Below are positions 4,348 through 43,516 of a stretch of 64,000 bases of DNA, piece after piece. Position 1 is the stretch's first letter. The number at the start of each line of letters is the position of its first letter. The translations under genes were made by a program, and so were the position numbers. The notes beneath the pieces were generated by a model. The model saw only the letters and a list, made by a program, of their open reading frames with translations, was not told the DNA's origin and did not search any database. Source of the DNA: an uncultured Pseudomonadota bacterium (GTDB lineage: Bacteria; Pseudomonadota; Gammaproteobacteria; Acidiferrobacterales; UBA6901); assembly GCA_963698375.1 (NCBI GenBank), contig CAVOQN010000006.1, positions 165,488 through 229,487 of the forward strand, in the 5' to 3' direction.

Positions 4348-7300
4348 ATGGCAAGGAATTCTTCTGGCACGCATGCGTGCCACGAAAGTCTTGTGCGCTT
4401 GACGTTCGTCACAGCTGTCTTCGCATTTCTTTTCATTCCGAATTCGTATGCTGCCGCGCCTTGCGATCCTGCCGCCGGACAGATTGCGAGTGTGGAAGGC
4501 AAGATTGAAATCCAACGTGGCGTCGACGCACGTTGGGAGACGGTCAAGTTGAAAGACACCCTGTGCGAGGGTGATTCATTGCGGGCCGCCGAACGCAGCC
4601 GCGCGACGATTGCACTGGCGAATCAGGCAGTCTTCCGCATCGATCAAAACAGCACCATTCGCCTGACCAATATCAGCAGCAAGCCCGAGGAGCGCTCGTT
4701 CCTGAACCTTCTGAAGGGAGCGGTTCAGTCGTTCAGCCGCAAGCCGCGTCAGTTCGAAGTCAGCACCCCCTACCTGAACGGTTCTATCGAGGGCACCGAG
4801 TTCGTCATTCGCGTGACCGAGAATCAGACCATTCTTACGGTTTTAGAAGGCACGGTGCGGGCGGCCAATGAACAGGGGAGCGTAACGGTTCCTTCCGGAC
4901 AGGCGGTCGCCGCCGAGGCCGGCAAGGCACCACAATCGCTTACCGTAGTGCGCCCGCGCGACGCCGCCCAGTGGACGCTTTACTATCCGCCGGTATTGGA
5001 TCTGACGGATAGCGCCGCTGCACCAGCCTCCTTGCGCGATGCCCAGGAGCACGCGGCCCGCGGTGACTACCCCGCGGCGTTTACCGCGCTGGATGCCGTG
5101 AAGCAGGGTGAGCGTGACGCCCGCTATTCTCTTCTTCGCGCTTCGCTATTACTGTCTGTTGGCCGGATAGACGAGGGGCGTAAGGAGATCGACCGCGCCC
5201 TGGCGCTGGATGCCAATTCCGGTGTGAGCCATGCCCTCAATGCAGTCATTGCCGTAGTATTGAACGAGCGCGACCTGGCCTTGGCGGAAGGCCGCAAGGC
5301 AGTCGAATTGGCGCCGGATTCTGCCGCGGCATACATCGCCTTGTCTTACGCACATCAGGCACGTTTTGACTTGCCTGCGGCCCGCGAAACACTGCTGACG
5401 GCTGTGAAGCGTCAGCCGAAGGATGCCCTGGCCTGGGCACGTCTGGCCGAATTGCAGCTGATGCTCGGCGAACGCAACGAAGCCATTGCCGCAGCCGAGA
5501 AGTCTTCGGCCCTGGCACCTGGCCTGGGACGGGCGCACACAATCCTTGGTTTTGCAGCCCTTTCGGGCTTCCGTGTCGCGGCGGCAACCAAGTCTTTTGA
5601 AAAGGCGATCGCCGCCGATAACGCCGACCCCATGCCGCATCTGGGTCTCGGTCTGGCGCGCATCAATCGCGGTCAACTGGAAGCAGGTCGACGCGAGATT
5701 GAGCTGGCAGTTGGTCTGGATTCGAATAACGCCTTGCTGCGCGCCTATTTGGGCAAAGCCTATTTCGAGGAACGCCGCACGGACATCGACGCCCAGCAGT
5801 TCCAGGTCGCCAAGGAACTCGATCCGCGTGATCCCACGCCATACCTTTACGACGGTATCCGGCTGCAAACCGAGAACCGCCCGGTCGAGGCCGTACAGGC
5901 GTTGGAAGACTCGTCTGACCGCAACGATGATCGTGCCGCTTATCGCGGGCGACTGCTGCTGGACCAGGACCGTGCCGCGCGCGGCACCAGTGTGGCGCGC
6001 GCCTACAGCGACCTCGGTTTCTCGTCGGTGGCTGCCAACGAAGCCACGAATTCCCTGGCGGCGGATCCGAGCAATGCCTCGGCCCATCGCTTCCTGGCCG
6101 ATTCACTGCGTGATGATCCGCGCCGCGAGGTCGCGCGGGTGAGCGAGGAACTGCAGTCGCAATTGTTGCAGGATATTTCGATCTATCCGGTGCAGCCGAG
6201 TGCCGGTGAAACCGGCCTGAACGTGGTGACCGCCGGTGGCCCGGCGAACGCCGGCTTCAATGAATTCACGCCGCTGTTCCAGCGTGATCAGGTGCAGGCG
6301 ACGGTCAGCGCATTCATGGGCGGCCAAAATACCTCCGGTTACGAAGTGGCGGCGTCGGGTCTTTATAAACGCTTTTCCGTGAGTGTCGGCGCCTACGAAT
6401 ACACGAGCGACGGTTTCCGCCCGAACAACGACAACAAGCACTCCGTCAATAACTTCTTTGCCCAGGCCGAGGTGGCCGACGGGTTTAACGTGCAGGTCGA
6501 GCACCGCCATCGCTATTCCGAGAACGGCGATCTCGTCATGCAATTTGACCCGACGACGTTCTATCCGGACGCTCGTCAGAAGCGGGAAATCGAAAGCGAT
6601 CGCATTGGTGCCCGCCTGAACATCGGTCCGCGCTCGACGCTGTTGCTCTCTTCCATATTCTCGGATCGTTCGGAGGATGGCGGACTCACGCTGGTAAATA
6701 TCCCCAACGTTTTCGTCTTCCGCAGGGATTTTACGGTTCGAGAGGACAGCAATCAGCACGAACTGCAGTACCTGTATCGCGGCGATCAGTTCAAGCTTCA
6801 GGCTGGCGCCTCGCGCTCGAGTTCCGATGTGGATACCCTGGATCTGGCATCGTCGACGGTGTGGGTGCCCCTGCCGTCACCGCCGTTCCCCCCGGGCTCG
6901 ACAACGCCGGTCACGAGTGTGATCCCGACCCAGGCGAACAACGAACTGATCGACACGCGCGGCTATCTCTACGGCTACACCCGGTTCCCGTCGGTCGTGC
7001 AATGGACGGTGGGAGCCGGGTATGACAAGCATGAAGAAGATGCCTACAACTACGACGACGCGCAAATCAGCCCCAAGCTGGGCGCCAAGTGGGACATCAC
7101 CAAAGCGGTGGCCTTGCGCGCGGCCTACATCAAGTCCGTCAAGCCGGGCCTGTCGGCCAACCGCACGCTGGAACCGACCCAGGTGGCCGGGTTCAACCAG
7201 ATTTTCGATGACGCGAACGGCACCAAGGCAACACGGTATGGCGCCGGCCTGGATTGGCGCGCGGCGCGCAACGTGTTCACAGGTCTCGAGGCCACCTGGC

Positions 7301-7812
7301 GCGACATCGAGCACCCGAATATCGTCAGCAGCACCATCCAGTTCGAGGACTGGAACGAACAGTTGCATCGCCTGTACGCCTACTGGGTGCCCACCGCACG
7401 CTGGAGTCTGGGTGTCGAGGGAGCCTATGACATGTTCGAAAGTAACTCCCTGGACATCAGCCGGCCGCGCAATGTCACCACGTTCACGGCGCCTGTGCGT
7501 TTGCAATATTTCCACCCGAGTGGCTGGTTCGCCTCTCTGGTGACGACGTACGTCGATCAGACGGTCGAAAACAACAATCTTGCACCGCCGCCCGCAACGA
7601 TTCAGCTGGACAGCAAGTTCACCGTGACCGACTTTGCACTGGGTTACCGGTTACCGAAGCGGGCGGGCATCGCCAGCATCACAGTGCAGAACCTGTTCGA
7701 CCGGTCGTTCGACTATCAGGACAACAGCTATCGTGCCTTTCAGGATGTGAGTATCACGACGCCGTATCAGCCGGAACGTGTGGTGATGGGTCGCGTGACA
7801 CTAAGTTTCTAG
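4348..7812 (+). CDS. secreted FecR-domain / TPR-repeat / C-terminal beta-barrel outer-membrane protein
   Basis: ORF 4333..7812. Signal peptide ...FIPNSYA/AAP, FecR-like N-domain, ~350 aa of TPR-like repeats, ~550 aa beta-rich C-terminus ending ...VMGRVTLSF (aromatic terminus). GGAGG lies 7 nt before ATG 4348. Confidence 0.8.
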   Translation: MARNSSGTHACHESLVRLTFVTAVFAFLFIPNSYAAAPCDPAAGQIASVEGKIEIQRGVDARWETVKLKDTLCEGDSLRAAERSRATIALANQAVFRIDQNSTIRLTNISSKPEERSFLNLLKGAVQSFSRKPRQFEVSTPYLNGSIEGTEFVIRVTENQTILTVLEGTVRAANEQGSVTVPSGQAVAAEAGKAPQSLTVVRPRDAAQWTLYYPPVLDLTDSAAAPASLRDAQEHAARGDYPAAFTALDAVKQGERDARYSLLRASLLLSVGRIDEGRKEIDRALALDANSGVSHALNAVIAVVLNERDLALAEGRKAVELAPDSAAAYIALSYAHQARFDLPAARETLLTAVKRQPKDALAWARLAELQLMLGERNEAIAAAEKSSALAPGLGRAHTILGFAALSGFRVAAATKSFEKAIAADNADPMPHLGLGLARINRGQLEAGRREIELAVGLDSNNALLRAYLGKAYFEERRTDIDAQQFQVAKELDPRDPTPYLYDGIRLQTENRPVEAVQALEDSSDRNDDRAAYRGRLLLDQDRAARGTSVARAYSDLGFSSVAANEATNSLAADPSNASAHRFLADSLRDDPRREVARVSEELQSQLLQDISIYPVQPSAGETGLNVVTAGGPANAGFNEFTPLFQRDQVQATVSAFMGGQNTSGYEVAASGLYKRFSVSVGAYEYTSDGFRPNNDNKHSVNNFFAQAEVADGFNVQVEHRHRYSENGDLVMQFDPTTFYPDARQKREIESDRIGARLNIGPRSTLLLSSIFSDRSEDGGLTLVNIPNVFVFRRDFTVREDSNQHELQYLYRGDQFKLQAGASRSSSDVDTLDLASSTVWVPLPSPPFPPGSTTPVTSVIPTQANNELIDTRGYLYGYTRFPSVVQWTVGAGYDKHEEDAYNYDDAQISPKLGAKWDITKAVALRAAYIKSVKPGLSANRTLEPTQVAGFNQIFDDANGTKATRYGAGLDWRAARNVFTGLEATWRDIEHPNIVSSTIQFEDWNEQLHRLYAYWVPTARWSLGVEGAYDMFESNSLDISRPRNVTTFTAPVRLQYFHPSGWFASLVTTYVDQTVENNNLAPPPATIQLDSKFTVTDFALGYRLPKRAGIASITVQNLFDRSFDYQDNSYRAFQDVSITTPYQPERVVMGRVTLSF

Positions 7813-7896
7813 TAATGTAATACAGAAATTGGAGCGTCTTGTTTATTGTGCCAAGGAAACAGGGCCAAACCTCATAACTCAAGCAGGAGAACAGCA

Positions 7897-8724
7897 ATGA
7901 TCAACAAGTCAGGTGTGAAGTGGTTACTAAAGTTGGCTCTGGCCTCTCTGGCGATTGGAGCTTCGAGCAACATCTGGGCAGCCTGTACACAGGCCGCGCC
8001 CGGTGCAAAGACAGTTCTAAATCTCAAAGGCGTTGTGGCATGCGATGCCGTCGCCGGACGAGTTGGCTGTGACATCGCCAATGGTAGTGGCAGTTGTACT
8101 GCGTACTCAGGTAGCACCCCGATGTTCACCGCCAATAGCTCGATTAATTCAGACGGAAGCATCAGCTGGAACATCACTTCTGGTTCCCAATACAATGTCG
8201 ACGAGGTTTTTGTGCAGGGCACCACCGGAGGCGAGACGTGCGAGTACGCGTACGCGGACGAAGCCACAGCGGGACAGTTGCTCGGCTTCTATAAGGATAA
8301 CCAAACTTACCAAACCGTGAAAAATGTCAGCTTCTGCACCGATGGCAAAAATCAGGTAAAGCAGGTGGCTAAGCCGCTGCCGGGTTGCCCGGCTGACGTG
8401 CAGGCGGCCCTGAATGATGGCACCATTCCGGGTGACTACGCCATCGTCGGTACCATCACCGACGGTGACTCGGCGACCCTGTGTCTCAAGAGTGGTGTCA
8501 CGGTCGAGCCGTGCATCAACGAGGAAGGCAAGGGTCTCGGAACCACACCCGCCGGTAAAGTACCGCGCTGCTCGGAAGGTCCGAACGCGGCTGGCTCACC
8601 GTCCTTCAAGCGCAACCTGACCTTCTCGATGAACAAGACTGGCGAAAACAGCCAGCTGTTCGTCTGCCTGCCCCCGACCTATACCTTCGGCGGTGGTCAG
8701 TCCTGCGGTTGGGTATACTATTGA
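7897..8724 (+). CDS. secreted cysteine-rich protein of unknown function
   Basis: ORF 7846..8724. AGGAGA RBS before ATG 7897, signal peptide ending SNIWA/AC, many Cys residues, followed by a terminator. Confidence 0.7.
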   Translation: MINKSGVKWLLKLALASLAIGASSNIWAACTQAAPGAKTVLNLKGVVACDAVAGRVGCDIANGSGSCTAYSGSTPMFTANSSINSDGSISWNITSGSQYNVDEVFVQGTTGGETCEYAYADEATAGQLLGFYKDNQTYQTVKNVSFCTDGKNQVKQVAKPLPGCPADVQAALNDGTIPGDYAIVGTITDGDSATLCLKSGVTVEPCINEEGKGLGTTPAGKVPRCSEGPNAAGSPSFKRNLTFSMNKTGENSQLFVCLPPTYTFGGGQSCGWVYY

Positions 8725-8750
8725 TTGCGTGACGCACTCGCGTGAGATCA

Positions 8751-8777
8751 ATGCCCCCGAAAGGGGGCATTTTTTTG
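8751..8777 (+). terminator. rho-independent terminator
   Basis: ATGCCCCC-GAAA-GGGGGCAT stem-loop followed by T7. Confidence 0.8.
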
Positions 8778-8898
8778 TTTCTAGTTTTTGTTAAGGCTGG
8801 CCAGCCCGCGTTTTGACACCCTTCCCTGAACCAGCACTTATTCTCACGGTTCAATCACAATTCTTTTGTTCCGGTGTGTATGCAGGTATGTTGCAGCC

Positions 8899-10068
8899 AT
8901 GCCCGTAAACATTGCGATTGCCGTGATTGTTGTCGCCGAATTGTTCGGCACCTCACTGTGGTTCAGTGCCAATGCCGTGGCCGATGCGCTGCAACGCCAG
9001 TGGGGCATCTCCGTTCTGGATCTCGGCCACCTCACGAGTGCGGTGCAGTTCGGGTTCATCAGCGGTACCTTTGTCTTCGCTTTCTCGGGCGTGGCCGACC
9101 GGTTTTCCGCGAGCCGCATTTTTGCGCTGTGCGCAGTACTGGGCGCGGCAACCAATGCGGCATTTGCCTGGTCGAGCGGCGGGCTCGCCAGTGCGCTGCT
9201 GTATCGCTTTCTCACCGGTCTTGCACTCGCCGGCATTTATCCAATTGGCATGAAGCTGGTGGTGAGCTGGGCGCCACAAAAGGCCGGCAATGTATTGGGT
9301 TGGCTGGTCGGCATGCTGGTGTTCGGCAGCGGCCTGCCGCATTTCGTGCGCGGTCTGGATGTGACGCCAAACTGGCAAGGTGTGATCTACACCGCCTCGG
9401 CTCTCGCGCTGCTCGCGGCGTTGATGGTGGGCTGGCTCGGCGACGGGCCGCATCACGGCACCGCCCGGCGGCTGCAATGGGGTGCCGTGCTGCAGACGTA
9501 CCGCATTCCGGATTTCCGCGCGGCCGCGTTCGGTTACTTCGGCCACATGTGGGAGCTGTATGCGTTCTATGCGCTGGTGCCGCTGCTGATCGCGCAACGC
9601 ATCGGGAGCGTTGCATCGAACGAAGTGTATCTCGCGGCAGCGGGCGTGTTTGCCGCGGGTGGCATCGGTTGCATTGCCGGTGGCCTGATTAGTCATCGTT
9701 GGGGCAGCGCGCGGGTGGCGATCGTGGCGCTAGCGGGTTCAGCCACCTGTTGCCTGTTGTATCCGCTCGCGCAGGACCTGTCGTCGCCGATGCTGCTTGC
9801 CTTGTTGCTGGCGTGGGGATTTTTTGTCGTAACCGACTCGCCGCAATTTTCAGCACTCGCCGCCGGCGCCTGCCCGCCGGAGCGGGTAGGGAGTGCACTG
9901 GCGCTGATGAACAGTGTTGGATTTGCTATCACCATCGTGGCTATCGAACTTGCCACCAGCCAGTGGGAAGGCATGCGAACCCATATCGCCTGGTTGCTGT
10001 TGCCGGGCCCGCTGCTGGGCCTCATTGCCATGCGCCGGTTGTGGCACCATAACGAAACAGCCTTCTAA
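8899..10068 (+). CDS. MFS transporter
   Basis: ORF 8866..10068. About 12 hydrophobic segments with MFS-like loops. Start set at MPVNIAIAV. Confidence 0.85.
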
Positions 10069-10069
10069 A

Positions 10070-10112
10070 ATTCGGCCAGCCCGGCGAGGTGTGGTTGCCG
10101 GAGTCGAGGGGC
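10070..10112 (+). repeat. relic of the 3' end of a Vgb-like beta-propeller gene (left flank of the PhoX-like gene)
   Basis: About 36 nt nearly identical to 40966-41010 (GGCCAGCCCGGCGAGGTGTGGTTGCCGGAGTCGAGGGG; encodes ..GQPGEVWLPES..). Confidence 0.6.
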
Positions 10113-10133
10113 TGGAAGCGGTAATGGAGACAA

Positions 10134-11453
10134 ATGAAAAACGGCCCTGACCTTATATATCTGCTGCTTGCTGCCATGGTCGGTAGCAACACGCATTCCA
10201 TGTCTGTCGCCGATTCGACCGTCGTCAATGGTTCAATGGCGTTTAACCCGATCGCCGGTTCTGCGTACACCGCGCTTACCTCGGATCCCGTCATTCTCTC
10301 CAGCCAGCCGTGGGTCATCCCCGAGGGCTATACGCAGCGCATCATCGCAGACGAAACCAACCTGAATATTTATGCCGGCCCCGACTGGAGCGACATGAAT
10401 GTGGCCAACGAAACCGGCAAACACGCCGGCCGATATTTGTATCGCACCCACGAAGTGCGTCCGAGTTCGAGCAACCCCGGCGCCTACACCGGTGGCGCCG
10501 TGTCGGTGGTGGATCTTAAAACCGGCAAGGCCAGGGTTATGGCGCAGCGTCACGATTGGGAAGCAGTGGATGGACTCGTGTGGTCGCCGTGGGGCACGCT
10601 GCTGTTTGGCGAGGAGACCGGCAACGCCCGGTTGCGCGATCCGGATCATCCGGCGGCGATCCGCGGCCTGATTTACGAAATGAAGCCCGACACGCACGAT
10701 CCGACCCGTGCCGAATGGATAAAGGCGCGACCGATGCTCGGTTCGGTGTCGCATGAAGGCATTGAGCTCGACAGCGAGGGCAATGTGTATGTGATCGACG
10801 AATTCGCCTCGGGCGCGATCTACAAGTTCGTGCCGAAAAAGCACGGTGACCTGAGAGACGGCCAGTTGTACGCCCTAAAGCTTGATGGCAACAGCAACGC
10901 GGATCGCACCGGTCCGGCTACCTGGGTGGCGCTCGACATGGACCGCGTGCAAGTCGATGCGCGCACCGCCGCCGCAAACGCCGGTGCCACCGGCTACGGC
11001 CGCCCCGAGGATCTGGAACGCATCGGCGACAAGCTGTACGTCGCAATCACCAGCGAAGCGCGTGTGCTGTCCATCAGCCTGGGCGGCAAGCCAGTGGTGC
11101 AGAATTTTGTCCGTGCCGGGCTGAATGTCCCGGTCGAGAACCGCTCCGCCGGCATCACCGGTTTCCGCAAACCGGACAACCTGGCCAACGGACCGGACGG
11201 CAACCTCTGGATCGTGGAAGACAACGTCCCAAGTGATCTCTGGGTGGCACTGCCGGACAGCGATGGTGACGGCGCCAGCGATGGCGTGTCTCTGTTCGGT
11301 TCGCTCAAGGACAACGGTGCCGAGGGAACCGGCATCTACTTTGGCAAGGACCCCGACACGTTGTTCGTGAACGTGCAGCACTCGGTCACCGGCAATGACA
11401 AGACCATGGCGATCACGAGTCGCAAGCACCAGATTCCCAGCCGTCCCCGTTAA
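10134..11453 (+). CDS. PhoX/DUF839-like secreted beta-propeller protein, paralog 1
   Basis: ORF. Motifs GRPEDLERIGDKLYVAITSE, NLANGPDGNLWIVEDN and EGTGIYFGKDPDTLFVNVQHS resemble the PhoX C-terminal region. About 80% aa identity by eye to 23415..24737. Confidence 0.75.
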   Translation: MKNGPDLIYLLLAAMVGSNTHSMSVADSTVVNGSMAFNPIAGSAYTALTSDPVILSSQPWVIPEGYTQRIIADETNLNIYAGPDWSDMNVANETGKHAGRYLYRTHEVRPSSSNPGAYTGGAVSVVDLKTGKARVMAQRHDWEAVDGLVWSPWGTLLFGEETGNARLRDPDHPAAIRGLIYEMKPDTHDPTRAEWIKARPMLGSVSHEGIELDSEGNVYVIDEFASGAIYKFVPKKHGDLRDGQLYALKLDGNSNADRTGPATWVALDMDRVQVDARTAAANAGATGYGRPEDLERIGDKLYVAITSEARVLSISLGGKPVVQNFVRAGLNVPVENRSAGITGFRKPDNLANGPDGNLWIVEDNVPSDLWVALPDSDGDGASDGVSLFGSLKDNGAEGTGIYFGKDPDTLFVNVQHSVTGNDKTMAITSRKHQIPSRPR

Positions 11454-11456
11454 ACT

Positions 11457-11504
11457 TGGTTATCGGAGTCGGGGGCGTATAAGCTGGTAGTGATCCGGGA
11501 GTGA
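11457..11504 (+). repeat. relic of the Vgb-like gene 3' end (right flank of the PhoX-like gene)
   Basis: Translates WLSESGAYKLVVIRE*, compared with WLPESGADKLVVIRE* at 40987..41030. Confidence 0.6.
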
Positions 11505-11629
11505 AGCTTGGTTGTGGGTGGGAACTGACAAGGCCAGATATTATTCGGTGAAGGGCGGCTCTTTGCCTGACGTTGACAGCAGCGAGCCGGCAACTTATCT
11601 CAATGTGAGCAACAGCCTTGGGAGGAAAC

Positions 11630-12580
11630 ATGAAAATACGTCGCCTAGGCAGCGTGGCAGTGATGGCGAGTTTGGTGAGTGTGCTGGCGCAGGCGGCACC
11701 CACGGCGGTCGTTCTTGGCACGGCCACCAAGGGCGGCGGATTTGAACTCTACGGACAGCACCTGGCTGAGGTAATCGACGAAGCCGATGCGTCCTTGAAA
11801 ATCGAAATACGCGCCACCCGCGGCAGCGCGGAGAATCTGCCGCTGCTCGAAGCCGGCAAACTCGACATCGGACTGGTCGAAGGCAATGCCGTGCATGCGG
11901 CCTTCGAGGGCATCGACCGGCCGAAGTCCGCATTGCGTATTGTGGCCGCCATGTATCCGGGCCCCGGCATGTTCGTGGTGCGCGGCGACAGTCCGTATCG
12001 GACTGTCAGCGATTTAAAAGGAAAATCCGTGGCCTTCGGCACGCCGGCCTCGGGCCTGACCAAACTCGCGCGTGATGTGCTCGATGGTCTGGGGCTGACA
12101 CCGGAACGCGATTTTAAAGCGGTGTTTCTGGACAAGGCCGGCGATGGCCCGGCATTCGTGCTGGACGGAAAAGTCGCCGCGCTCTGGGGCGGCGGCATCG
12201 GCTGGCCGGGATTCACCAAGGTAGCCGCCGGCCCGCACGGTGCGCGCTTTATTGTTCCGGATGCAGGCGAAATCAAGTTTATTCAGGCCAAGCATCCGCA
12301 CCTGCGCCGCATGACTGTACCGGCCGGGACCTATGCCGGGCAGGACGCGCCCATTCATTCGGTAGGTTTGTGGTCGTTCGTGCTGGCACGCGCCGATCTG
12401 CCGGACGACGTGGCCTACAAGCTGGCGCGCGCCGTGCACCGCGGCGAAGCAAAACTGGCCGCGCGCCTGGCGCAGGGCCAGTATTCCACCGCGGCCAATA
12501 CCGCGAGCGAAGCGCCGCGCGCCGAGTTGCTGCATCCCGGCACGGCACGCTACCTGCGCGAAATCGGCGCACTGCGCTGA
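11630..12580 (+). CDS. TAXI-family TRAP transporter solute receptor
   Basis: ORF 11618..12580. GGAGG RBS, signal peptide, TAXI-like motif ATRGSAENLPLLEAGKLDIGLVEG. Confidence 0.85.
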   Translation: MKIRRLGSVAVMASLVSVLAQAAPTAVVLGTATKGGGFELYGQHLAEVIDEADASLKIEIRATRGSAENLPLLEAGKLDIGLVEGNAVHAAFEGIDRPKSALRIVAAMYPGPGMFVVRGDSPYRTVSDLKGKSVAFGTPASGLTKLARDVLDGLGLTPERDFKAVFLDKAGDGPAFVLDGKVAALWGGGIGWPGFTKVAAGPHGARFIVPDAGEIKFIQAKHPHLRRMTVPAGTYAGQDAPIHSVGLWSFVLARADLPDDVAYKLARAVHRGEAKLAARLAQGQYSTAANTASEAPRAELLHPGTARYLREIGALR

Positions 12581-15627: not shown

Positions 15628-16975
15628 TCAGGTATCGACCGCAAACGACACTTCCACGCACAGGCCCTTGCCGTCCTCGCCCGCGGCGAGGGTGACGTGC
15701 GCGTGATGCAGATCGGCTATGCGCTTGACGATGGACAGGCCAAGGCCGCTGCCGGTTTGTTCGGTGCCGAGCACGCGATAGAAGCGCTCCCAAACAAGTG
15801 GCTGCGCCTCGGCCGGGATGCCCGGGCCCTGATCGACAACGGAAAAAACTGCCTGGCCATCGCGGCTTGCGATGGCCACCCGCACCTGGCTTCCGGATGG
15901 GCTGTAGCGTATGGCGTTGTCGATGAGATTGCGCATCAGGATACCGAGCAAGGTGGCAACGCCGGGCGCGCGCACCGCGGCACCTTCCGCCAGTTGCAGC
16001 GTCGATGTTTTTTTGAATGGCAACGGGCGCCAGCGCGGAGATCACGTCCACGGCCAGCGCGCGCAAGTCGCAGGATTCGCCTGACTGAAGTTGTTCCGGC
16101 TCCAGCCGGGCGAGCGTCAGCAGTTGCTCCACCAGGTGCGCGGCACGCGTGCAGCCGAGCACGACGTTGTCCAGTGCACGCTGCCGTTCCGCATCCGCTG
16201 CGGCGGCGCGTGCCACTTGCGCCTGGGTCATGATGGCGGCCAACGGCGTGCGCAATTCATGCGCGGCATCGGCGGTGAAGCGCCGCTCCTTGTCGAGCGA
16301 GTCGCGCAGACGCGCGAACAGCTGGTTGAGTCCCTCCACCAGCGGCATGACCTCGACGGGAACAGAACTGCCTTCCAGCGGCGTGAGATTGTCGGCGCGC
16401 CGTTGCGCAACCTGGTTACTCAGTGATTGCAAAGGGCGCAGGCTGCGCGCGACGCCGAACCAGATGAGCAGGCCCAGCACTGGCAGCGCGAACAGCATCG
16501 GCCGCAACAGGTTTTCGGCAATGGTTTCCGCCAGCTCGTCGCGCACTTTGCGACGCTCGCCGACCTGGATGAGGTAGTGCCGCGAGTCGTCCCAGGCGCT
16601 GAACACGCGCCAGGATTTGCCATCGACACGGCTGTTGCTGAATCCTTCCTGCGTGGTTGACAACGGTGAGTTCGGCGCGCTGGCCGAATGCAGCACCAGC
16701 TTGCGTCCTTTCTCCCACACCTGAAACGCCACGTTGCGGCTGTAGCGGTGCAGTGGCGGTGCGTGTTCGGTGTCGTAGTCATCGGCTTCGTGGCCGATCT
16801 GAACGAACAGCAGTGAGGCGGACTGGGCCAGGTGCGCGTCGAGCAGTTCATCCAGCTCGTGACGCGTGTCCCGATAGCTGAAGATCAGGGTAACGCCCCA
16901 GGCCAGCAGCGTGACCAGCAGCAACACCACCAGCAGGCGGCGCTTGATGGAATGCCGGGTGCGTCGCTCAGTCAT
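15628..16975 (-). pseudogene. two-component sensor histidine kinase (QseC-like), frameshifted in a 7-nt homopolymer
   Basis: ORF 15551..16984 carries TM/HAMP/HisKA (FTADAAHELRTPL) and then leaves frame. ORF 15628..16023 carries HATPase_c (NLIDNAIRYS, GSGLGLSIV). The join is at T7 (fwd) 16008-16014. Confidence 0.8.
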
Positions 16976-17636
16976 GCGCGTCACGCGGTATCAGGTAGCC
17001 CACGCCCCGGATGGTGTGCACCAGTTCCGGCGCCAGTTTACGTCGCAGGTGGTGCACATGCACTTCTATTGCGTTGCTGCCTGGTTCTTCGCCCCACGCG
17101 TACAGCCGCTGCTCCAGTTGCTCGCGCGACAGCACGCGCCCGGCGTTGAGCATCAGTTCATGCAGCAGGGAAAATTCGCGCGCGCTGAGTTCAACCGGCT
17201 GGCCGCGGAACAGCACGCGGTGTTCCGCCGGATTCAACTCCAGATCATTCACATGCAGGGTCGCCGCCGCTTCGCCGCGGCTGCGGCGTGTGAGGGCGCG
17301 CACGCGCGCCGCCAGTTCATGCAGATCGAACGGCTTCACGACATAGTCGTCCGCGCCACTGTCCAGCCCTTTGATGCGATCTTCAATAGCATCGCGCGCT
17401 GTCAGGATCAGCACTGGCACGGTATTACCGCGGGTACGCACGCGATTCAGCAGTTCCAGTCCGGAAAGCTTCGGCAGGCCGAGATCAAGCACCACCGCCG
17501 CATAGGTTTCGGTTTGCAGCGCCGCATCCGCCTGCGCGCCGTCCTTCACCCAATCGACCGCGAAACCGGCTTGACCCAGTCCGGCCTGAATACCGTCACC
17601 GAGCAGACTGTCGTCTTCGACCAGCAATAGGCGCAT
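16968..17636 (-). CDS. OmpR-family response regulator
   Basis: MRLLLVEDD...VLDLGLP receiver domain plus winged-helix C-terminus. Overlaps the kinase start by 8 nt. Confidence 0.9.
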   Translation of the reverse strand: MRLLLVEDDSLLGDGIQAGLGQAGFAVDWVKDGAQADAALQTETYAAVVLDLGLPKLSGLELLNRVRTRGNTVPVLILTARDAIEDRIKGLDSGADDYVVKPFDLHELAARVRALTRRSRGEAAATLHVNDLELNPAEHRVLFRGQPVELSAREFSLLHELMLNAGRVLSREQLEQRLYAWGEEPGSNAIEVHVHHLRRKLAPELVHTIRGVGYLIPRDAHD

Positions 17637-17640
17637 GCCG

Positions 17641-18246
17641 CTATCTTATGACACTCCACAGCACAGCCATACTGGTCAGCAGGCCGGCACCGAGCAGCCA
17701 ATGCGCACGGCCCACACCCTGACCGGGTTCGCCGGTTTTGTAACCGTTGATCATCGCGCGCACCAGATTCTCGCGGTGCAACAGGCTGCTGACCAGCACG
17801 CCGAGCACATGCACCGACACAAGCGCCAGCATGGTGTTGGCAATACCTTCGTGCAGATCTTCCAGCCACTCGCCGCCAATCTTTTCGTAGGTCGCGTAGC
17901 CGGTAACGCCCGCGAGCAGACCCAGGAACAGCAGTCCGAAAATCACCCAGCTGCCCGCCGGGTTATGGCCCACGTAGTGTTGTGGAGAACGGGTGAGCAG
18001 CGACTTGAGGTAGGCCACAACTTTGGCGGGACGCAAGGTAAAGGCACTGAAGCGCGCATAACGTGTCCCGACGATGCCCCACAGCAGGCGGAAGCCGATC
18101 AGCCCGAGCATGGAATAACCGATCAGCACGTGCACGTCTCGAAAGTATTCCGACTCTGCGGTCAGAAACGCGCCGACAAAGGAAATGGCCAGCAGCCAGT
18201 GAAACAGGCGAGTAGGGATATCCCACACCAGAATGCGTGTTTTCAT
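17641..18246 (-). CDS. cytochrome b561 family protein
   Basis: Start MKTRILVWDIPTRLFHWLL with a GAAGGAGAA RBS. Four TM segments with conserved His residues. The longer 393-aa ORF is a spurious extension. Confidence 0.85.
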   Translation of the reverse strand: MKTRILVWDIPTRLFHWLLAISFVGAFLTAESEYFRDVHVLIGYSMLGLIGFRLLWGIVGTRYARFSAFTLRPAKVVAYLKSLLTRSPQHYVGHNPAGSWVIFGLLFLGLLAGVTGYATYEKIGGEWLEDLHEGIANTMLALVSVHVLGVLVSSLLHRENLVRAMINGYKTGEPGQGVGRAHWLLGAGLLTSMAVLWSVIR

Positions 18247-18257
18247 GCTGTTCTCCT

Positions 18258-18716
18258 TCATTTCGGCAGTCGTATGCCGCGTTCGCTGTAATTGCCCTTG
18301 TCGCCGTCGACATGGCAGGCCGAGCAGTTGGCCGCGCTTTTTACTTTCGGGTTGTTCCAGGTGTGCGCCGGCACCTCGTCGTGCTCGTGCATGAACCAGC
18401 GGGTTTCGGTAATGCGCAGCACCGGCGTCGAGGAGCCGGTACGATCGCGCCCCGCGTTCTGTTCCAGGAAGGCTGTAACGCGGGCCGCGGTCTGCGGATC
18501 GAGGCTGGCGTCTGTGCCGAAATGCTTGTCGAGTCCGGACATCAGTGCGCGCCACGATCGCACCGGCAACAGCCGTGGCGGATAGGCGATGTGGCAGCTG
18601 GCGCATTCGGCCTGATAAGTCGGGTCGCTGATGTTGTAGACATGGTCGCCGGCCTCGGCCAGGCCGGTGCCGCCGGCAAGCGCAAGAATAAAACCAAAAC
18701 GTTTCATCAAGTGCAT
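18258..18716 (-). CDS. diheme cytochrome c
   Basis: Signal peptide and two CxxCH motifs (CASCH, CSACH). Confidence 0.8.
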   Translation of the reverse strand: MHLMKRFGFILALAGGTGLAEAGDHVYNISDPTYQAECASCHIAYPPRLLPVRSWRALMSGLDKHFGTDASLDPQTAARVTAFLEQNAGRDRTGSSTPVLRITETRWFMHEHDEVPAHTWNNPKVKSAANCSACHVDGDKGNYSERGIRLPK

Positions 18717-18728
18717 GACAGGCTCCTG

Positions 18729-19145
18729 TTAGCGGACGGACATGAGATAGGTGAGCACATCGCCTTTTTCCGCGGGCGTGCAGGCGCGGCCGAGCACATC
18801 GTTGCAATTGCGCCGGAACCACTTCTCAACCTTGTCGGCCCGGGCAAAGCGTTCGGCATTGGCTGCTGGCGCGAGCGGCGCAATTGGCTTGTCGGTTTTG
18901 GCATGCCGGCCCTCAGTCGCCGGATTGCGCGTATGGCAGGCGGCACAACTCCACTCCCGCCCATGGGTACTGGTAAAGAAGGCCGCGCCGCGCGTGGCGG
19001 AGAAACCGGCGAAGCCGGTCTGTTCCTGTCGCGCTGCCGCCTCAAAGGTACGCAGGAAATCCGCCGGGGTTTCGGCGCGGGCCGAGACGGCAAGCGCCAC
19101 AGCCAGCGCGGCGAGGCCGGCTCGGACCAGAGGGAATGTGTGCAT
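18729..19145 (-). CDS. DUF1924-type monoheme cytochrome c
   Basis: Signal peptide, CAACH, and the C-terminal motif KVEKWFRRNCNDVLGRACTPAEKGDVLTYL. Confidence 0.75.
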   Translation of the reverse strand: MHTFPLVRAGLAALAVALAVSARAETPADFLRTFEAAARQEQTGFAGFSATRGAAFFTSTHGREWSCAACHTRNPATEGRHAKTDKPIAPLAPAANAERFARADKVEKWFRRNCNDVLGRACTPAEKGDVLTYLMSVR

Positions 19146-19553
19146 GGTGATGTCTCCCGCAGCGGTTGATTGCGGGACATACCCTAGCGCCCGAACCTTA
19201 TGGGAAACTTAACAGTGGCAATGAATCCGCGAGTATCCGGGCAGGAGAGGAGTTGTCGCGTATATTAGGAAGAATTCCCCTCTGGCGCGGGTTTTCGATG
19301 AGCAACTTCCGCACCTGATGAGCAAGATCGGTGTCTACACCTTATATAACCCGGAAGACTCGGTGACCAGAAAGAATTCAGCCGTCCCATCCAGGCCGAC
19401 GCTCGCGCCTGGAACGTTTCCTCATCCGGCACCAGGCCGGCATGCCGCGCACCATGTTGCGCTACGCCATTGGGCATCTGCCAGTGCCACAGCGCGGCGT
19501 TATCTTCAGGACAAGTCAGCACGAAGAGCGCAGCCGTTCGGAGCTTTACCGGA

Positions 19554-20528
19554 CTATGTACAGCACATGTATCGCCACACCGGTGCATACAAGGGCGTCC
19601 CGTCCGGCAGCAGCGGCGTCTTCTCGTCGGTGACAACCGCGCCGTGGGCGTCGTTGTAACTGCCGGTGGACGGCAACGCATCGCTGTGCAGCATGTGCGT
19701 GTTGTTGTAGGGCGCGGCGACGCTGTCGACATCGATCGGCGCGCCATAGTCGGCCAAACCCATCAGCGTCCACGCCGCCAGCTTCGCCGGCAGGTTGTCA
19801 CGGTCGTGGTTGAAGCCAAAGTAGCCAGCGGTCGGGGTCACGTGGTTGCGGTCCTGCCACGGTGCCACGCCATAGCTGTTGCCGTCGCCGGGGGCTGCAA
19901 ACATCAGCACCCGGTCGAGAACATAATACTTCCCGATCACGGCGGCGTGCCCGGCGCCTTGCGAGTGGCCGGAAAACTGCAGGCGTGACCAGAACGGCTG
20001 CCCGTTGTCCAGGTATTGGTCCCAGCCTTCACCCGGCCAGGTCGCGTGCAGGTATTGCAGCAGTTTGATCAGCCGGTTGATGATGGAATTGTTGGCGTTG
20101 ACCGCCACCAGCGTGCTGCGATCGGTACCGTCAATGATCTCGAGGCGAACCCGTTCGTAGCAGGTCAGGTCCGGATCGGTGGCGCACAGATCGATGACCT
20201 CCCAGGAGTTCGGGTAGCGCAAGCCGATGACATGGTTGCCGGCTGCCGCCATCTCCTGCATGTAGCGCTGACTGTTTTCGGGTTTGCCGTAGGAACCCGG
20301 CAAGTGCACCAGCAACCGGCCGCGTGCCACGACGCGCGTGTCGCGGTAGGCGTAGTGGTCGTCGAGCCAGTTGTTGATATTGGTGTCGGTGGCAGCTGGC
20401 GCCACGATGTGTTCGGACAGCGCACCGGCGGGTGGCGCGATGGGGGTGTCGCCACCGCCACCGCTCCCGCCACACCCGGCAATGTTCAACATCACTACCA
20501 AACCGGCAAATCCCGCCTGCCATGACAT
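19554..20528 (-). CDS. lipoprotein, alpha/beta-hydrolase-like (GHSQG)
   Basis: ORF 19554..20846 trimmed to the ATG after GGGAGG. Lipobox LNIAGC. GHSQG nucleophile elbow. Confidence 0.75.
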   Translation of the reverse strand: MSWQAGFAGLVVMLNIAGCGGSGGGGDTPIAPPAGALSEHIVAPAATDTNINNWLDDHYAYRDTRVVARGRLLVHLPGSYGKPENSQRYMQEMAAAGNHVIGLRYPNSWEVIDLCATDPDLTCYERVRLEIIDGTDRSTLVAVNANNSIINRLIKLLQYLHATWPGEGWDQYLDNGQPFWSRLQFSGHSQGAGHAAVIGKYYVLDRVLMFAAPGDGNSYGVAPWQDRNHVTPTAGYFGFNHDRDNLPAKLAAWTLMGLADYGAPIDVDSVAAPYNNTHMLHSDALPSTGSYNDAHGAVVTDEKTPLLPDGTPLYAPVWRYMCCT

Positions 20529-20582
20529 CGTATCCTCCCGTGGGCGCGCTTCGCCCCAACCCGAATGGCGGAGCATGCAATC

Positions 20583-20610
20583 ATAACGCACCGATTGGCC
20601 AGCGGTTGAC
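20583..20610 (-). promoter_or_regulatory. candidate ECF-type promoter GTCAACC-N15-CGTTAT (copy A)
   Basis: The same -35/-10 blocks at identical spacing, with a divergent spacer, occur at 22318..22345 and 25597..25624. Confidence 0.5.
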
Positions 20611-20668
20611 GCCGGCTGAATCTCCCCCACCAGAAATAGTCGTCTCCGATTGGAAGCGACTCGGATTG

Positions 20669-22261
20669 TTAACGTTTTCCAATCGGAGTGTCGGCACGGC
20701 GCAGGGCCCAGACACTGGTGGTGAAGTTCGAGCCGTTGGGCACCGCCGAGTAGAACACCCACGTCTTGGAGGTTCCGATGTAGGGCTCGGGTTCGGATTT
20801 CGCCAGGCTGGCGACGGTCAAGTCGCTCGTATTGGACAGTCGCCATTGCGATTCCGTAGGCGGCGATTGCAGCACCGTCGAGAGCCAGATCTCGCCAGTG
20901 TTGGTGATGGTGTCGTAGAAACCGAGGCCTCTTTCGTTCACCTGGTAAGTGGTGTAGAGCAAGTCATCGAAGACAATGCTCTGGTTGGATTGTGCGAGTG
21001 CCGGATTGACGAGCAGCGAGTCGGGCGGCGTAATCTGCTCGACACTGGTGAACAGCGTCTCCCCCGAACTGCGCTGGTAAACCGTGGTGGTGGCGGTAGC
21101 ATTGATGCCCGGAAGGATCAGCTCACTGTCGCCGAACACCATGGACCACGGGTCGATCTTGTTGCTCGGATCGCCGGTCACGAAATAGGGCGGCGTGCCC
21201 GGGCTGTCCACATCGAACTCCTTCACCTGCACGTAACCCCGCGCGTCGAAGCTGCCAAAACTGAGCGCGGCCTTGCCGCGGAACCAGCGCGCGAAGCCTG
21301 CATCCATCGGGGCGAAGCCGTTCGCGGGCAGCGGCTGGGTTTCCACATCGTGCACGCTGGCGGGATCGGCCAGGCTGATGTACTGCAACGTGAACGAGGT
21401 GTTGCCCGGGGGGCTGTAGCCGGCGCCGGCGACCGTCGAGTTGCGGATCCAGAAGACGTAGTTAGTCGCGTTCGGAAGGTTGGTGGGATAAATAGCGCGG
21501 CGCAGCGTGTCCACCGCGGTCGCGAGTGTGGTAACGGTTCCGGTGGTGGCACTGGTCGGGCGCACGAGAATCAGTTGCCCGGTACGATTCATGCCCACGT
21601 AGAACGCACCCTGCGCATCAATGCCGGCATTGGCCCGGCCCCAGGCGCTGCTGTCGAAAGCGCGAAAGCCTTTGCCGTCCGGCGGGTCGAGTGTTCCGGT
21701 GGCGGGGTCCACGGCACAGTGCCACATGGTGCCCAATCCGGAACCATCGGTGGACTGCTCAAACCAGACCATGTAGCGGCTATCGTCCGTGAACTCCACG
21801 TTGGCATAGCTTACGAGCGGGTCGCCCACCTGCACGTCGTTTACCGCAAAGGTGTGCGTCTGCGCGACCACCGCAGAGGACGGCGCCGACATGGCGCCCG
21901 CGCTGTCCTGGGAAGCCACTTGGTAACTGAAGCTGGTACCTGCAAACAGCCCGCTGTCGTTGAAATGGTTGCTGGTTGAGGTAGTGACTGGCTGGCCGTT
22001 GCGGTAGATCACGTACGAAGCCGCCGCGGTGACCACATCCCAGGCGAGGCTGATCTCCGACGACGACACTGCATTCGCCGTCAGGCCTGTGGGCGCCGTC
22101 AGCGAACCGGGTGGCGGGGGCGTCGAGCCAGAACCACCTCCGCCTCCGCACGCTGACAGGAATACGCATGACAAGAGGAGTATCGTCAGTCCAGTTGAAC
22201 GCATCATCACTGTTAACCCCGGTTTCAATTTATGTGTGAACACAGCTCGTCTGCATGACAT
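20669..22261 (-). CDS. lipoprotein with N-terminal fibronectin type III domain and unknown C-terminal domain
   Basis: ORF. Lipobox FLSAC followed by a G-rich linker. FN3-like LTANAVSSSEISLAWD...YVIYRNG. The start context GGAGGACACGATGTCATG is conserved with 20528. Confidence 0.75.
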   Translation of the reverse strand: MSCRRAVFTHKLKPGLTVMMRSTGLTILLLSCVFLSACGGGGGSGSTPPPPGSLTAPTGLTANAVSSSEISLAWDVVTAAASYVIYRNGQPVTTSTSNHFNDSGLFAGTSFSYQVASQDSAGAMSAPSSAVVAQTHTFAVNDVQVGDPLVSYANVEFTDDSRYMVWFEQSTDGSGLGTMWHCAVDPATGTLDPPDGKGFRAFDSSAWGRANAGIDAQGAFYVGMNRTGQLILVRPTSATTGTVTTLATAVDTLRRAIYPTNLPNATNYVFWIRNSTVAGAGYSPPGNTSFTLQYISLADPASVHDVETQPLPANGFAPMDAGFARWFRGKAALSFGSFDARGYVQVKEFDVDSPGTPPYFVTGDPSNKIDPWSMVFGDSELILPGINATATTTVYQRSSGETLFTSVEQITPPDSLLVNPALAQSNQSIVFDDLLYTTYQVNERGLGFYDTITNTGEIWLSTVLQSPPTESQWRLSNTSDLTVASLAKSEPEPYIGTSKTWVFYSAVPNGSNFTTSVWALRRADTPIGKR

Positions 22262-22317
22262 CGTGTCCTCCCCGTGGGCGCGTTTCGCCCGGGCCCGGAA
22301 ACCGGGGGCATGCAGTC

Positions 22318-22345
22318 ATAACGCACCGACAGGCTAGCGGTTGAC
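22318..22345 (-). promoter_or_regulatory. candidate ECF-type promoter GTCAACC-N15-CGTTAT (copy B)
   Basis: See 20583..20610. Confidence 0.5.
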
Positions 22346-22561
22346 ACGGCTGAACCTCCCACACCAGAAATAGCCGTCTCCAATCAGAAGCGGCCAAGGC
22401 ATCAGATGTTTGCGTTGACACACTCGACCCGCGCCGTGATGATTCAACAAGCCGGCAAGGAGAATATTAAGAAGAAACTGTTACGAGCCGGCCTCCGTCC
22501 GAAGGGAGAGTTCCGCATGCGCACGAGCACTCATGTTCTGCTGGCAGCGGCAAAAAAACCC

Positions 22562-22611
22562 GGGTCAGAGAGGAATTGTTGCTAATATTAGAAAATATTC
22601 CTCTCTGACCC
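22562..22611. repeat. 50-nt palindromic repeat, GGGTCAGAGAGG family
   Basis: GGGTCAGAGAGGAAT-N20-ATTCCTCTCTGACCC. Related copies at 44950, 45825 and 52796. Confidence 0.8.
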
Positions 22612-22657
22612 TGATTACCCAGTCCCCTCACGACGTAGTCAACGAAACAACACAGCA

Positions 22658-22999: not shown

Positions 23000-23089
23000 T
23001 TTATGAAAAGATGATGTAGTGATTAAACTTTTGTCACTGCGTACCCTAAAATGTCTTTAACAATTTCATCTTTCATCACCGTGGAATCC

Positions 23090-23239: not shown

Positions 23240-23414
23240 AAAAATTTCACTTGTTCGTCATATGCCTGCCATGCAGGCAGGCATGTCCCCGGCTCGCTCC
23301 GGCGCGCGCCGCGGCGGCGCCTGAGCCGATTTAATGAACAGGTAACAAACGGCCACTAGAGTTCCTGTCGCAGTGCGCACCCGCACCCCAAACCTTTGCT
23401 TACCGGGAGACAAA

Positions 23415-24818: not shown

Positions 24819-24915
24819 GCCCAGCGAGCCTGCGGCCGTTTCATCTGAAAAATATCATCGCGCCAAAATCACACTGATCAACGCAATCGCTACCTCTGCA
24901 AATTCCGGATTGGAC

Positions 24916-25533: not shown

Positions 25534-25596
25534 CAGAAATGAACCCTTCTGGTTGCACAGCATTCTGTTCCAGCCCGGTGTCCGGCGTATACAGCC

Positions 25597-25624
25597 ATAA
25601 CGCACCGGTCGACAAATGGTTGAC
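25597..25624 (-). promoter_or_regulatory. candidate ECF-type promoter GTCAACC-N15-CGTTAT (copy C)
   Basis: See 20583..20610. Confidence 0.45.
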
Positions 25625-25675
25625 GTCGTTTCGATATTCAATGCGTAGGCAGCCGGGTTTTGATCGAGGCACAAG

Positions 25676-32093: not shown

Positions 32094-32195
32094 CTATTGT
32101 CTTGTGTCTTGCAGGCGTATATCGGCATGCACGCTGCCCTGAAAATCGCCAAACCGTTGCATGTATTCAATGATCAGCGACGACCGGATCGGGCT

Positions 32196-35168: not shown

Positions 35169-35279
35169 CCTGTCCTCGTGCACGGGTGCTTCGCTTCATT
35201 TGCAGTAGCCCGGGTTTCGGCAGACACTGCAAGGCTTGGTCCGCAACCGCGGAGCAAGCGAGCGAAACGGAGGCCGACC

Positions 35280-37829: not shown

Positions 37830-37903
37830 GCTTTTCTCCCGTGGTGATCGGCGCAGGGCTTTGTTGTGTGGGTCGACGTGATTATCCGAAACCGGACGCC
37901 GGA

Positions 37904-43513: not shown

Positions 43514-43516
43514 GAA

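Follow-up and report, generated by a model that had tools for sequence, protein, structure and literature searches.

The 64,000-nucleotide (nt) stretch of contig CAVOQN010000006.1 analyzed here (the window) carries a gene for a Vgb-like beta-propeller protein and several copies of the 3′ end of this gene, two of which flank a gene for a PhoX-like protein (PhoX-A). We find that the end of the Vgb-like gene is a junction at which recombination has recurred, and that it does not represent the scar of a single insertion. Four copies of this end lie in the window, about 40 metagenome loci carry it as well, and at least 12 independent junctions were found among the fragments. A preliminary description of the window had proposed a recurrent recombination site from four copies or fragments, and both the count and the recurrence were borne out.

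A search of the window with the 19-nt core TGGTTGCCGGAGTCGGGGG returned four matches at up to two mismatches (10092-10110, 11457-11475, 40983-41001 and 41954-41972), and dinucleotide-preserving shuffles of the window gave none (0 of 100). Sensitive blastn with the Vgb-like gene aligned 10072-10110 with 40963-41001 (95% identity, 39 nt), 11421-11504 with 40947-41030 (77%, 84 nt) and 41812-42002 with 40839-41030 (91%, 193 nt). The four 3′-end copies are thus those at 10072-10110, 11421-11504, 40839-41030 (the gene itself) and 41812-42002, and none of them is expected by chance. The sequences quoted in the preliminary description were present where it had placed them, the relics beside PhoX-A are genuine Vgb 3′ ends by blastn, and the same sequence brackets the NYN gene, with the Vgb gene on one side and a partial copy (copy C) on the other. 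The core copies and the features of the 41-kilobase (kb) locus are as follows:

10092-10110, plus strand: core copy 1 (TGGTTGCCGGAGTCGAGGG), from the core search
11457-11475, plus strand: core copy 2 (TGGTTATCGGAGTCGGGGG), from the core search
40983-41001, plus strand: core copy 3 (exact), from the core search
41954-41972, plus strand: core copy 4 (TGGTTACCGGAGTCGGGGG), from the core search
40072-41030, plus strand: Vgb-like beta-propeller gene, full length, with two frameshifts (~40365 and ~40520), from three-frame open reading frames (ORFs) and Pfam Vgb_lyase matches on the fragments
41032-41074, plus strand: flank motif after the Vgb stop codon (GAGTGACTAGCCAGAAAATAAATCTGTCC...), the sole significant nhmmer match in the window (E = 7e-9)
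41187-41730, plus strand: NYN-domain gene with one frameshift, cargo between the Vgb gene and the partial copy, from Pfam NYN (59.5 bits, 41320-41730) and two-frame ORFs
41812-42002, plus strand: partial Vgb copy C, codon ~260 to stop, 91% identical, with a 2-nt deletion and a 1-nt insertion, from blastn and alignment

Judged by alignment, the Vgb-like gene at 40072-41030 is the source type of all relics. Its product is 91% identical in amino acid sequence to the intact protein P0121. The frameshifted fragments score 44.0 and 44.7 bits against PF24684 (Vgb_lyase), for which the cut-off is 50, and intact homologues of 91% identity carry this domain. The frameshift at ~40520 lies in a run of A, that of the NYN gene lies at ~41340-41357, and the orthologous Vgb gene in the related locus L071 is intact; the frame damage in Vgb, NYN and copy C could represent either real pseudogenes or homopolymer sequencing errors.

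Homologues of the Vgb-like protein with 70-91% amino acid identity were found in Sulfuricaulis, Nitrospirota, Rhodospirillales and many further contigs. Assembly GCA_974499275.1 carries two Vgb paralogues in two further contexts, and their nucleotide homology to the window copy covers 40148-41066 only, that is, from inside the coding sequence to 36 nt past the stop codon. This suggests that the Vgb gene with its short 3′ flank is itself a transfer-prone unit that is often present in several copies. A two-component-system/cytochrome b561 cluster at 15638-19270 of the window is 87% identical at the nucleotide level to positions 6232-9868 of locus L109 from the same assembly. In L109 a Vgb paralogue comes directly after this cluster, with MNT/HepT and an internal fragment of Vgb behind it, and the window has no Vgb there, so Vgb loci differ between close relatives.

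Public metagenome contigs were scanned for the 19-nt core, which gave 84 loci; most of the related loci described below were thus chosen through the 3′ core. About 40 of the 84 encode SRNA[SR]VRQILGRPGEVWLPESGADKLVVIRE-stop, and the remainder are chance-level matches. Many of these ~40 contigs hold more than one copy when searched by tblastn with the reconstructed Vgb protein, sometimes one of full length and the others truncated on the 5′ side and ending at the stop codon. Such arrays were seen in L047, L072, L075, L081, L082 and others. In L075 the full Vgb gene is followed by fragments that begin at codon ~224-258 (tblastn and blastn disagree) and ~162-201, L081 reads fragment from codon 240, full Vgb, fragment from codon 256, and L082, L072 and L047 have two Vgb copies each.

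The genes between and after the copies form same-strand arrays of toxin-antitoxin and defence genes. Pfam scans identified the toxin-antitoxin pairs HigBA, ParDE and MNT/HepT, as well as an Eco57I-type methylase with an XhoI-type endonuclease, a cyclase of the cyclic-oligonucleotide-based antiphage signaling system (CBASS), a HATPase_c_3 protein and a cation-diffusion transporter; in the window the cargo is the NYN gene. Module order differs among contigs of 85-93% identity that have the same modules, and Vgb pieces lie at the joints. HigBA, for instance, lies downstream of full Vgb in L081 and L075 and upstream of it in L033 and L105, and the same joint between HigA and Vgb codon 256 occurs in L075, L079 and L081. 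The start of a module is not fixed, as the HigBA module begins at L081 position 7761 in some loci and at 7819 in others (~60 nt apart), and the cation diffusion facilitator (CDF) gene is joined to a Vgb fragment at two different junctions (L092 and L026). The two copies of a repeat pair within an array are usually not each other's closest relatives; for copy B of the window, 23 of 27 foreign copies were closer than copy C. Incoming DNA must therefore have supplied a Vgb segment itself.

The left ends of the fragments were found at codons 201, 226, 232, 240, 247, 251, 256, 258-260, 264, 265, 278, 286-289, 296-297 and 301-302. Since the sequence upstream is unrelated at each left end, these represent at least 12 independent junctions. 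Internal Vgb fragments exist as well (L109 and L056). Other loci have an intact Vgb gene that is not followed by any fragment (L061, L071 and L107). The preliminary description had held that its reading would fail if relatives showed the same arrangement with no intact ancestral gene anywhere. Part of this came true, as the PhoX arrangement recurs in relatives that have no intact Vgb gene at the locus; the other part did not, given the intact genes with unoccupied ends in the three loci just named. An isogenic pair of empty and occupied sites was not found among the related loci.

About two thirds of the distinct copies are followed, after the stop codon, by a ~45-nt motif (GAGTGACTAGCCAGAAAATAAATCTGTCACCTTTT), often with one or two further GTCACC-TTTT-like units. 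A nhmmer profile of this motif matched almost exclusively after Vgb stop codons, and we therefore rejected it as a general cassette boundary. The motif stands without Vgb to its left in three cases: after an MFS stop codon (L021), after a ParE stop codon (L081/L070) and upstream of HigBA (L105). Junctions thus also occur beyond the core, with ParE joined straight to the motif and, in L056, the motif joined to an internally deleted Vgb. Compared with the L071-type flank, L037 has a palindromic mini-insertion of ~32 nt (ACTGAC...GTCAGT) just past the Vgb stop codon (~1463-1500, oriented), with a copy of GGAG(N)TGA on either side. It looks like a tiny miniature inverted-repeat transposable element with an 8-nt target duplication that inserted right at the Vgb stop.

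Downstream of the Vgb gene in the window, a stretch of low G+C content from 41031 to ~50000 (45-50% vs ~61%) holds small ORFs, mostly on the plus strand, among them genes for two membrane proteins, a DUF6941 protein, a Zn-dehydrogenase, a DsrE protein, an ankyrin protein and a rhodanese. Two of these genes are each followed by a copy of a ~180-nt repeat (43501-43676 and 44778-44956, 87% identical). This stretch looks like accumulated cargo of the same hotspot.

The PhoX locus, together with the paralogous gene PhoX-B, is made up of the following features:

8866-10068, plus strand: MFS transporter gene (Pfam MFS_1, 87.6 bits)
10069-10137, plus strand: left Vgb-tail relic (A-left), Vgb codon ~301 to stop, from blastn and alignment with the L021 orthologue
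10134-11453, plus strand: PhoX-like gene A (PhoX-A), 439 amino acids (Pfam PhoX, 79.6 bits)
11421-11504, plus strand: right Vgb-tail relic (A-right), Vgb codon ~297 to stop, from blastn (77%, 84 nt), with orthologous relics in L021 and L022
11522-11554, plus strand: tentative decayed copy of the flank motif (GAACTGACAAGGCCAGATATTATTCGGTGAAGG), found by eye against the motif alignment and below the nhmmer threshold
23373-24737, plus strand: PhoX-like gene B (PhoX-B), an ancestral-type paralogue with the native His/Asp-rich tail and no Vgb relic, from sequence and tail comparison

The preliminary description had read the two relics as parts of a split relic, with the left copy ending at 10112 and the right one starting at 11457. 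This needs correction. The two sides hold overlapping copies of one ~80-nt segment (codon ~297/301 to stop), not complementary halves; they are ~70% identical to each other and start within ~4 codons of one another. The left copy runs on in decayed form to a TGA at 10135-10137, and the right copy starts at 11421, inside the PhoX-A coding sequence and in frame with it. A-left is chimeric, as 10072-10110 is 95% identical to the Vgb gene and 10111-10137 has decayed to ~55%. Its TGA overlaps the PhoX-A start codon (10134) as ATGA; the L021 orthologue has the same overlap, which is traceable to the Vgb TGA.

The PF05787 match of PhoX-A lies above the curated cut-off of 24 bits and spans only part of the 515-position model; by profile the protein belongs to the PhoX family, with a predicted phosphatase role. 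Its gene aligns without gaps with PhoX-B (10165-11422 with 23431-24688, 81% nucleotide identity), with sharp ends and no homology outside. The PhoX-B homology stops at 11422 and the Vgb homology begins at 11421, with a possible microhomology of 2-5 nt. The body of PhoX-A is thus a diverged duplicate of PhoX-B, and both the start region and the last 11 codons have a different origin. A-right supplies these last 11 codons and the stop. The tail reads R-K-H-Q-I-P-S-R-P-R-stop in the frame in which Vgb reads R-V-R-Q-I-L-G-R-P-G-E, and the stop codon TAA (11451-11453) stands at the position of the Vgb GAG, a GAG-to-TAA change. PhoX-B and more than 50 homologues end in the His/Asp-rich tail. Among the PhoX proteins compared, the PhoX-A type is limited to P0001-P0003, and the native tail is missing in all three. 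The native last ~12-15 codons of PhoX-A were replaced through an in-frame join to Vgb codon ~297. For annotation, the Vgb relics account for both the foreign start region and the foreign C-terminal tail of the PhoX-like protein.

The history of the locus was traced with L021 and L022, the contigs reached from the three closest PhoX-A proteins in the protein database. L021 (PhoX-A 91% identical in amino acid sequence) has the order FecR/TPR, hypothetical, MFS, 247-amino acid hypothetical, guanylate-cyclase-domain gene, PhoX, NMT1_3, ChaB, DJ-1, BON, and L022 (85%) the order ThiC, MFS, CorA, DUF302, PhoX, NMT1_3, ChaB, DJ-1, BON. PhoX and the four genes after it thus keep their order in both contigs, and the DNA upstream of PhoX is variable. 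A-right was found in all three lineages, the L022 copy being 82% identical to the Vgb gene of the window. A-left is present in the window and L021 only and is missing in L022, and in L021 it adjoins the cyclase gene instead of MFS. Likewise, a PhoX-B-like N-terminus (MNRK.../MTCK...) is kept in L022 and P0002, and the window and L021 share a different one (MKN...). This distribution shows that two separate events at different times placed Vgb tails beside PhoX-A. The older event, common to the three lineages, is the junction between PhoX-A and A-right. The window and L021 share a younger event, by which another unit with a Vgb tail at its end came to lie directly upstream of PhoX-A.

L021 also shows what preceded the present left side. 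Between MFS and PhoX it has two extra genes (the 247-amino acid hypothetical and a 429-amino acid guanylate-cyclase-domain protein; L021 6494-9125 vs 10069-10133 of the window). A decayed flank motif with the AAAATAAAT box stands directly after the L021 MFS stop codon, so that the L021 unit reads motif, two genes, Vgb tail. The MFS protein of the window is 96% identical to its L021 orthologue over residues 1-396 only, and its last ~7 codons differ, which marks the left edge of a deletion abutting the left relic. The window has thus lost these two genes along with the last ~7 MFS codons. In L021 A-left the pattern upstream of the core is the reverse of that in the window, and the core is matched at 19 of 19 positions though the relic is otherwise degraded. 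A-left of the window changes from young to old sequence at the 3′ edge of the core, which implies that the part upstream of the core was later renewed by exchange with a fresh Vgb copy.

Downstream of PhoX-A, the part of the relic from core to stop is the best-conserved part of the intergenic region between PhoX and NMT1_3, with ~85% identity between the window and L022 and 56-70% in its surroundings (11421-11630). This segment may have acquired a regulatory or translational role. An E. coli Chi sequence (GCTGGTGG) in the L022 relic was taken as a coincidence of the K-L-V-V codons. A scan of genome contigs with PhoX gave relatives of at most 59% identity, none of them syntenic, and protein look-ups found no exact match to PhoX-A or to the downstream NMT1_3-family substrate-binding protein.

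Dedicated machinery for these rearrangements was searched for, as the preliminary description had suggested that a recombinase might be associated with the junctions. Pfam scans of nearly every ORF with 100 or more amino acids found no tyrosine, serine or DDE recombinase in the window. In ~25 related loci there was none either, except for an IS3 transposase ~5 kb downstream of Vgb in S. limicola (L110); the related-locus scans covered cargo ORFs and the called genes of L025, L026, L072, L081 and L107-L110. No dyad symmetry, hairpin or terminal inverted repeat linking the Vgb tail and the flank motif was consistent across 35 copies, no tRNA, tmRNA or Rfam family was detected at the site, and no promoter or terminator consensus matched within the relics. 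The site was not found in any viral contig, phage record or small plasmid; only distant chromid or plasmid homologues (63-74%) were seen. We rejected an integron, as neither intI nor attC-like palindromes were found after Vgb or between the cassettes, including the S. limicola array (by eye and with repeat finders). A variable repeat/template repeat pair of a diversity-generating retroelement was likewise rejected: copies B and C differ by indels and mixed substitutions that are not adenine-specific, and the Pfam scans revealed no reverse transcriptase.

The explanation that we favor, at about even chances, is homology-driven insertion, in which the Vgb tail serves as portable homology for RecA-type insertion, combined with illegitimate joins and later deletions. 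DNA consisting of a Vgb 3′ part, its flank and cargo would enter a genome that already bears a Vgb copy and would integrate by homologous crossover within the Vgb segment, either as a Campbell-type insertion or by two crossovers between repeated copies. The product would read full Vgb, cargo, partial Vgb. The joint between cargo and fragment would arise as an illegitimate (microhomology) join once per module, and would afterwards be inherited and spread by homologous recombination, with redundant copies trimmed later from the 5′ side by deletions. A dedicated recombinase would not be required. In favor of this model are the scattered left ends of the fragments, the non-sister repeat pairs, the transfer-prone and often multi-copy Vgb family, the lack of extra synonymous-site constraint at the Vgb 3′ end in 12 intact genes, and the scans that revealed neither a recombinase (apart from the IS3 transposase of L110) nor a phage copy. 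The PhoX locus would then be an old two-unit example that has since lost its full-length Vgb gene, and PhoX-A would have co-opted the relics as translation start region and C-terminal tail. A second example in the window concerns an unrelated gene. A homocysteine-S-methyltransferase-like gene, apparently complete, occupies ~32.2-33.1 kb of the minus strand. Past it come 6.8 kb of other genes and then a 3′ fragment of the gene itself (24905-25346 vs 32184-32626, 443 nt, 95%), with homology ending 11 nt past the stop codon. As this gene shares the layout of gene, cargo and 3′ fragment, it points to recombination as a general habit of this genome rather than to a Vgb-specific machine. In the ORF at 24916-25674, the methyltransferase fragment is joined to an N-terminal part that is unrelated.

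Several observations weigh against homology-driven insertion. The left ends cluster at codons 256-260 and 296-302, the latter adjoining an alternating CG tract and comprising four or five independent junctions, and the right end is constant, at the stop codon plus up to 45 nt. No 5′-only Vgb fragments were seen, against at least 12 independent 3′ fragments, a count that is biased by the selection of loci via the 3′ core. Under pure homologous insertion the three motif copies that lack Vgb need very neat deletions. The perfect core in the degraded A-left of L021, together with the change of age at the edge of the core in A-left of the window, resembles a crossover site. The repeats at the PhoX locus (39-84 nt) are short for efficient RecA recombination, and no circular or donor intermediate was observed.

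Some of these points are what site-specific recombination would predict, with the Vgb tail (core to stop), with or without the motif, as an attachment site, and with integrase-less modules of motif, cargo and Vgb tail moved into tandem arrays by a recombinase encoded elsewhere in the genome. We consider this unlikely, though it is the alternative that we take most seriously. The same short core was present at both ends of the inserts, in four of four window copies and in all L021 and L022 relics, and in every core-selected fragment the sequence is retained from at least 15 nt before the core up to the stop. Besides the behavior of the core in A-left, the constant right boundary and the absence of 5′-only fragments (in loci chosen by their 3′ end), modules open with the conserved motif (2-3 tandem GTCACC-TTTT-like units) and close at the Vgb stop, the motif also follows the stop codons of other genes without Vgb, the cargo consists of same-strand toxin-antitoxin and defence arrays, and the last copy of an array has no motif, as attR would. 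A recombinase is missing from the window and the related loci, however, save for the IS3 transposase, and no phage or viral attP copy was seen. The Vgb homology upstream of the putative crossover, 0 to ~470 nt, would be superfluous for a site-specific system, the module boundaries shift (HigBA, see above), and the site has no dyad symmetry or inverted repeat around it. Intact genes showed no extra synonymous-site constraint at the Vgb 3′ end either (identity 0.79-0.84 vs ~0.75 gene-wide, 12 intact genes). A more specific proposal, which we regard as rather improbable, is that the Vgb-tail modules are integrase-less mobile cassettes of a class not described before, with the ~45-nt motif and its GTCACC-TTTT iterons as left boundary, the final ~80 nt of the Vgb-like gene as right boundary, and a trans-acting site-specific recombinase crossing over in or beside the 19-nt core. 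If it were true, integron-like arrays of toxin-antitoxin and defence genes would exist in diverse environmental Proteobacteria.

Plain decay of several tandem or dispersed Vgb paralogues through unrelated deletions, with fragments unconnected with the arrival of their neighbors, appears to us similarly improbable. It would fit the multiple copies of Vgb in differing contexts in relatives, the frameshifts in the Vgb and NYN genes themselves, the two different junctions between CDF and Vgb fragments, and the fact that HigBA followed by a codon-256 fragment can be derived from HigBA followed by full Vgb (L033 and L105) by a single ~900-nt deletion. Against it stand the strong 3′ bias, the position of the fragments exactly at the boundaries of modules that are reshuffled between near relatives, and the origin of repeat pairs from different Vgb lineages. 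Independent deletions would also have to account for PhoX relics that start ~4 codons apart and for the junctions clustered within codons 296-302. The direct repeats of the same sequence that flank PhoX and NYN had been taken in the preliminary description for a ~20-nt target duplication or att core of a single insertion. The repeats are ~80 nt long at the PhoX locus (39-84 nt as aligned) and 193 nt long at 41 kb, and other loci have up to ~470 nt; a short, fixed length is not observed. At the PhoX locus the two repeats differ in age, with a spread over three vs two lineages, and share just ~70% identity, and the repeats in other arrays are not sister copies. These lengths, divergence and unequal ages refute a target-site duplication; with neither terminal inverted repeats nor a transposase in the Pfam scans of the window, a transposon-type insertion of PhoX (and NYN) is hardly credible.

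Insertion at the 3′ end of a protein-coding gene, with a partial copy of that gene displaced, is known from integrative elements such as e14/phage 21 in icd, staphylococcal cassette chromosome mec (SCCmec) and pseudo-SCC elements at rlmH (orfX), and ICESt1 and its cis-mobilizable relatives (CIME) at fda. The Vgb arrays resemble them in their layout of intact gene, cargo and partial 3′ copy, in tandem accretion bounded by the repeat and in their accessory and defence cargo, and some of the known members also lack an integrase. They differ in that no recombinase was found, that the repeat ranges from 0 to ~470 nt and is not set by a crossover core, that the Vgb homology lies upstream of the constant boundary, where the extra copy does not restore the gene, and that no phage or plasmid with attP was found. 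Under site-specific recombination, SCC cassettes at rlmH and CIMEs at fda would be parallels. Truncated copies of a conserved gene mark successively displaced modules in the "orphan" modules of Rhs/CdiA as well, where recombination also proceeds via the conserved segment. There, however, the conserved fragment is a 5′ boundary fused in frame to a toxin tip, whereas the Vgb fragment is the extreme 3′ end of its gene, and its cargo genes are separate. With integron arrays and clusters of attC sites lacking integron-integrases (CALINs) the Vgb arrays share small same-strand toxin-antitoxin and defence cassettes that are reshuffled between close relatives, but they have no intI, no attI and no attC-like imperfect palindromes with RYYYAAC/GTTRRRY boxes at the boundaries.

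Homology-driven insertion with duplication is familiar from Campbell-type single crossovers and from merodiploid formation in natural transformation. These processes, like homology-facilitated illegitimate recombination, are known mainly from laboratory crosses, and we know of no description in which they recur in nature at one gene family and build multi-module arrays. We also found no paper linking Vgb-like genes to an integration hotspot. The Vgb arrays are like the products of Campbell-type insertion and of homology-facilitated illegitimate recombination (as defined in PMC3240628) in having a homologous anchor and a microhomology joint, and in the direct anchor repeats of donor and recipient origin, and hence non-sister, that flank the insert.

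As an old scar, the relic at 10-11.5 kb is in itself of modest interest; a gene tail that marks module boundaries in dozens of environmental contigs matters more. Should complete genomes bear the pattern out, a single beta-propeller gene that spreads horizontally would provide, at its end, a reusable docking point, at which toxin-antitoxin, restriction-modification, CBASS and other modules are stacked and exchanged in uncultured sulfur- and nitrogen-cycling Proteobacteria. The Vgb tail and flank motif could then serve as a sequence tag for defence and accessory islands in metagenomes. The system would also provide a test case for whether accessory-gene arrays can arise from homologous and illegitimate recombination alone or require a hidden recombinase.

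Other repeats and paralogues were observed in the window. Three partial copies (20321-20614, 22241-22392 and 25335-25628, 70-81%) of a ~150-300-nt segment include the 3′ end and flank of the ORF at 20016-20525, and one of the copies abuts the methyltransferase fragment, giving a patchwork of gene-end relics. Several methyltransferase paralogues are present (35178-36128, 37065-38030 and 39051-39854), as are two paralogous genes for extracytoplasmic function (ECF) sigma factors (38189-38707 and 56844-57368, 59% nucleotide identity), each beside genes of the DsrE or methyltransferase type. Two families of strong palindromic hairpins, which resemble repetitive extragenic palindromes (REP) or terminators (AAGGGGTCGGAGTGATT...AATCACTCCGACCCTT and GGGTCAGAGAGGAAT...ATTCCTCTCTGACCC), were found at 45986-46025, 46748-46787, 48297-48336, 49412-49451, 59930-59969 and 23008-23047, and also at 22546-22616, 45809-45879 and 19223-19293. 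The same hairpin families stand directly at Vgb-fragment junctions in the metagenome loci L044, L060 and L072.

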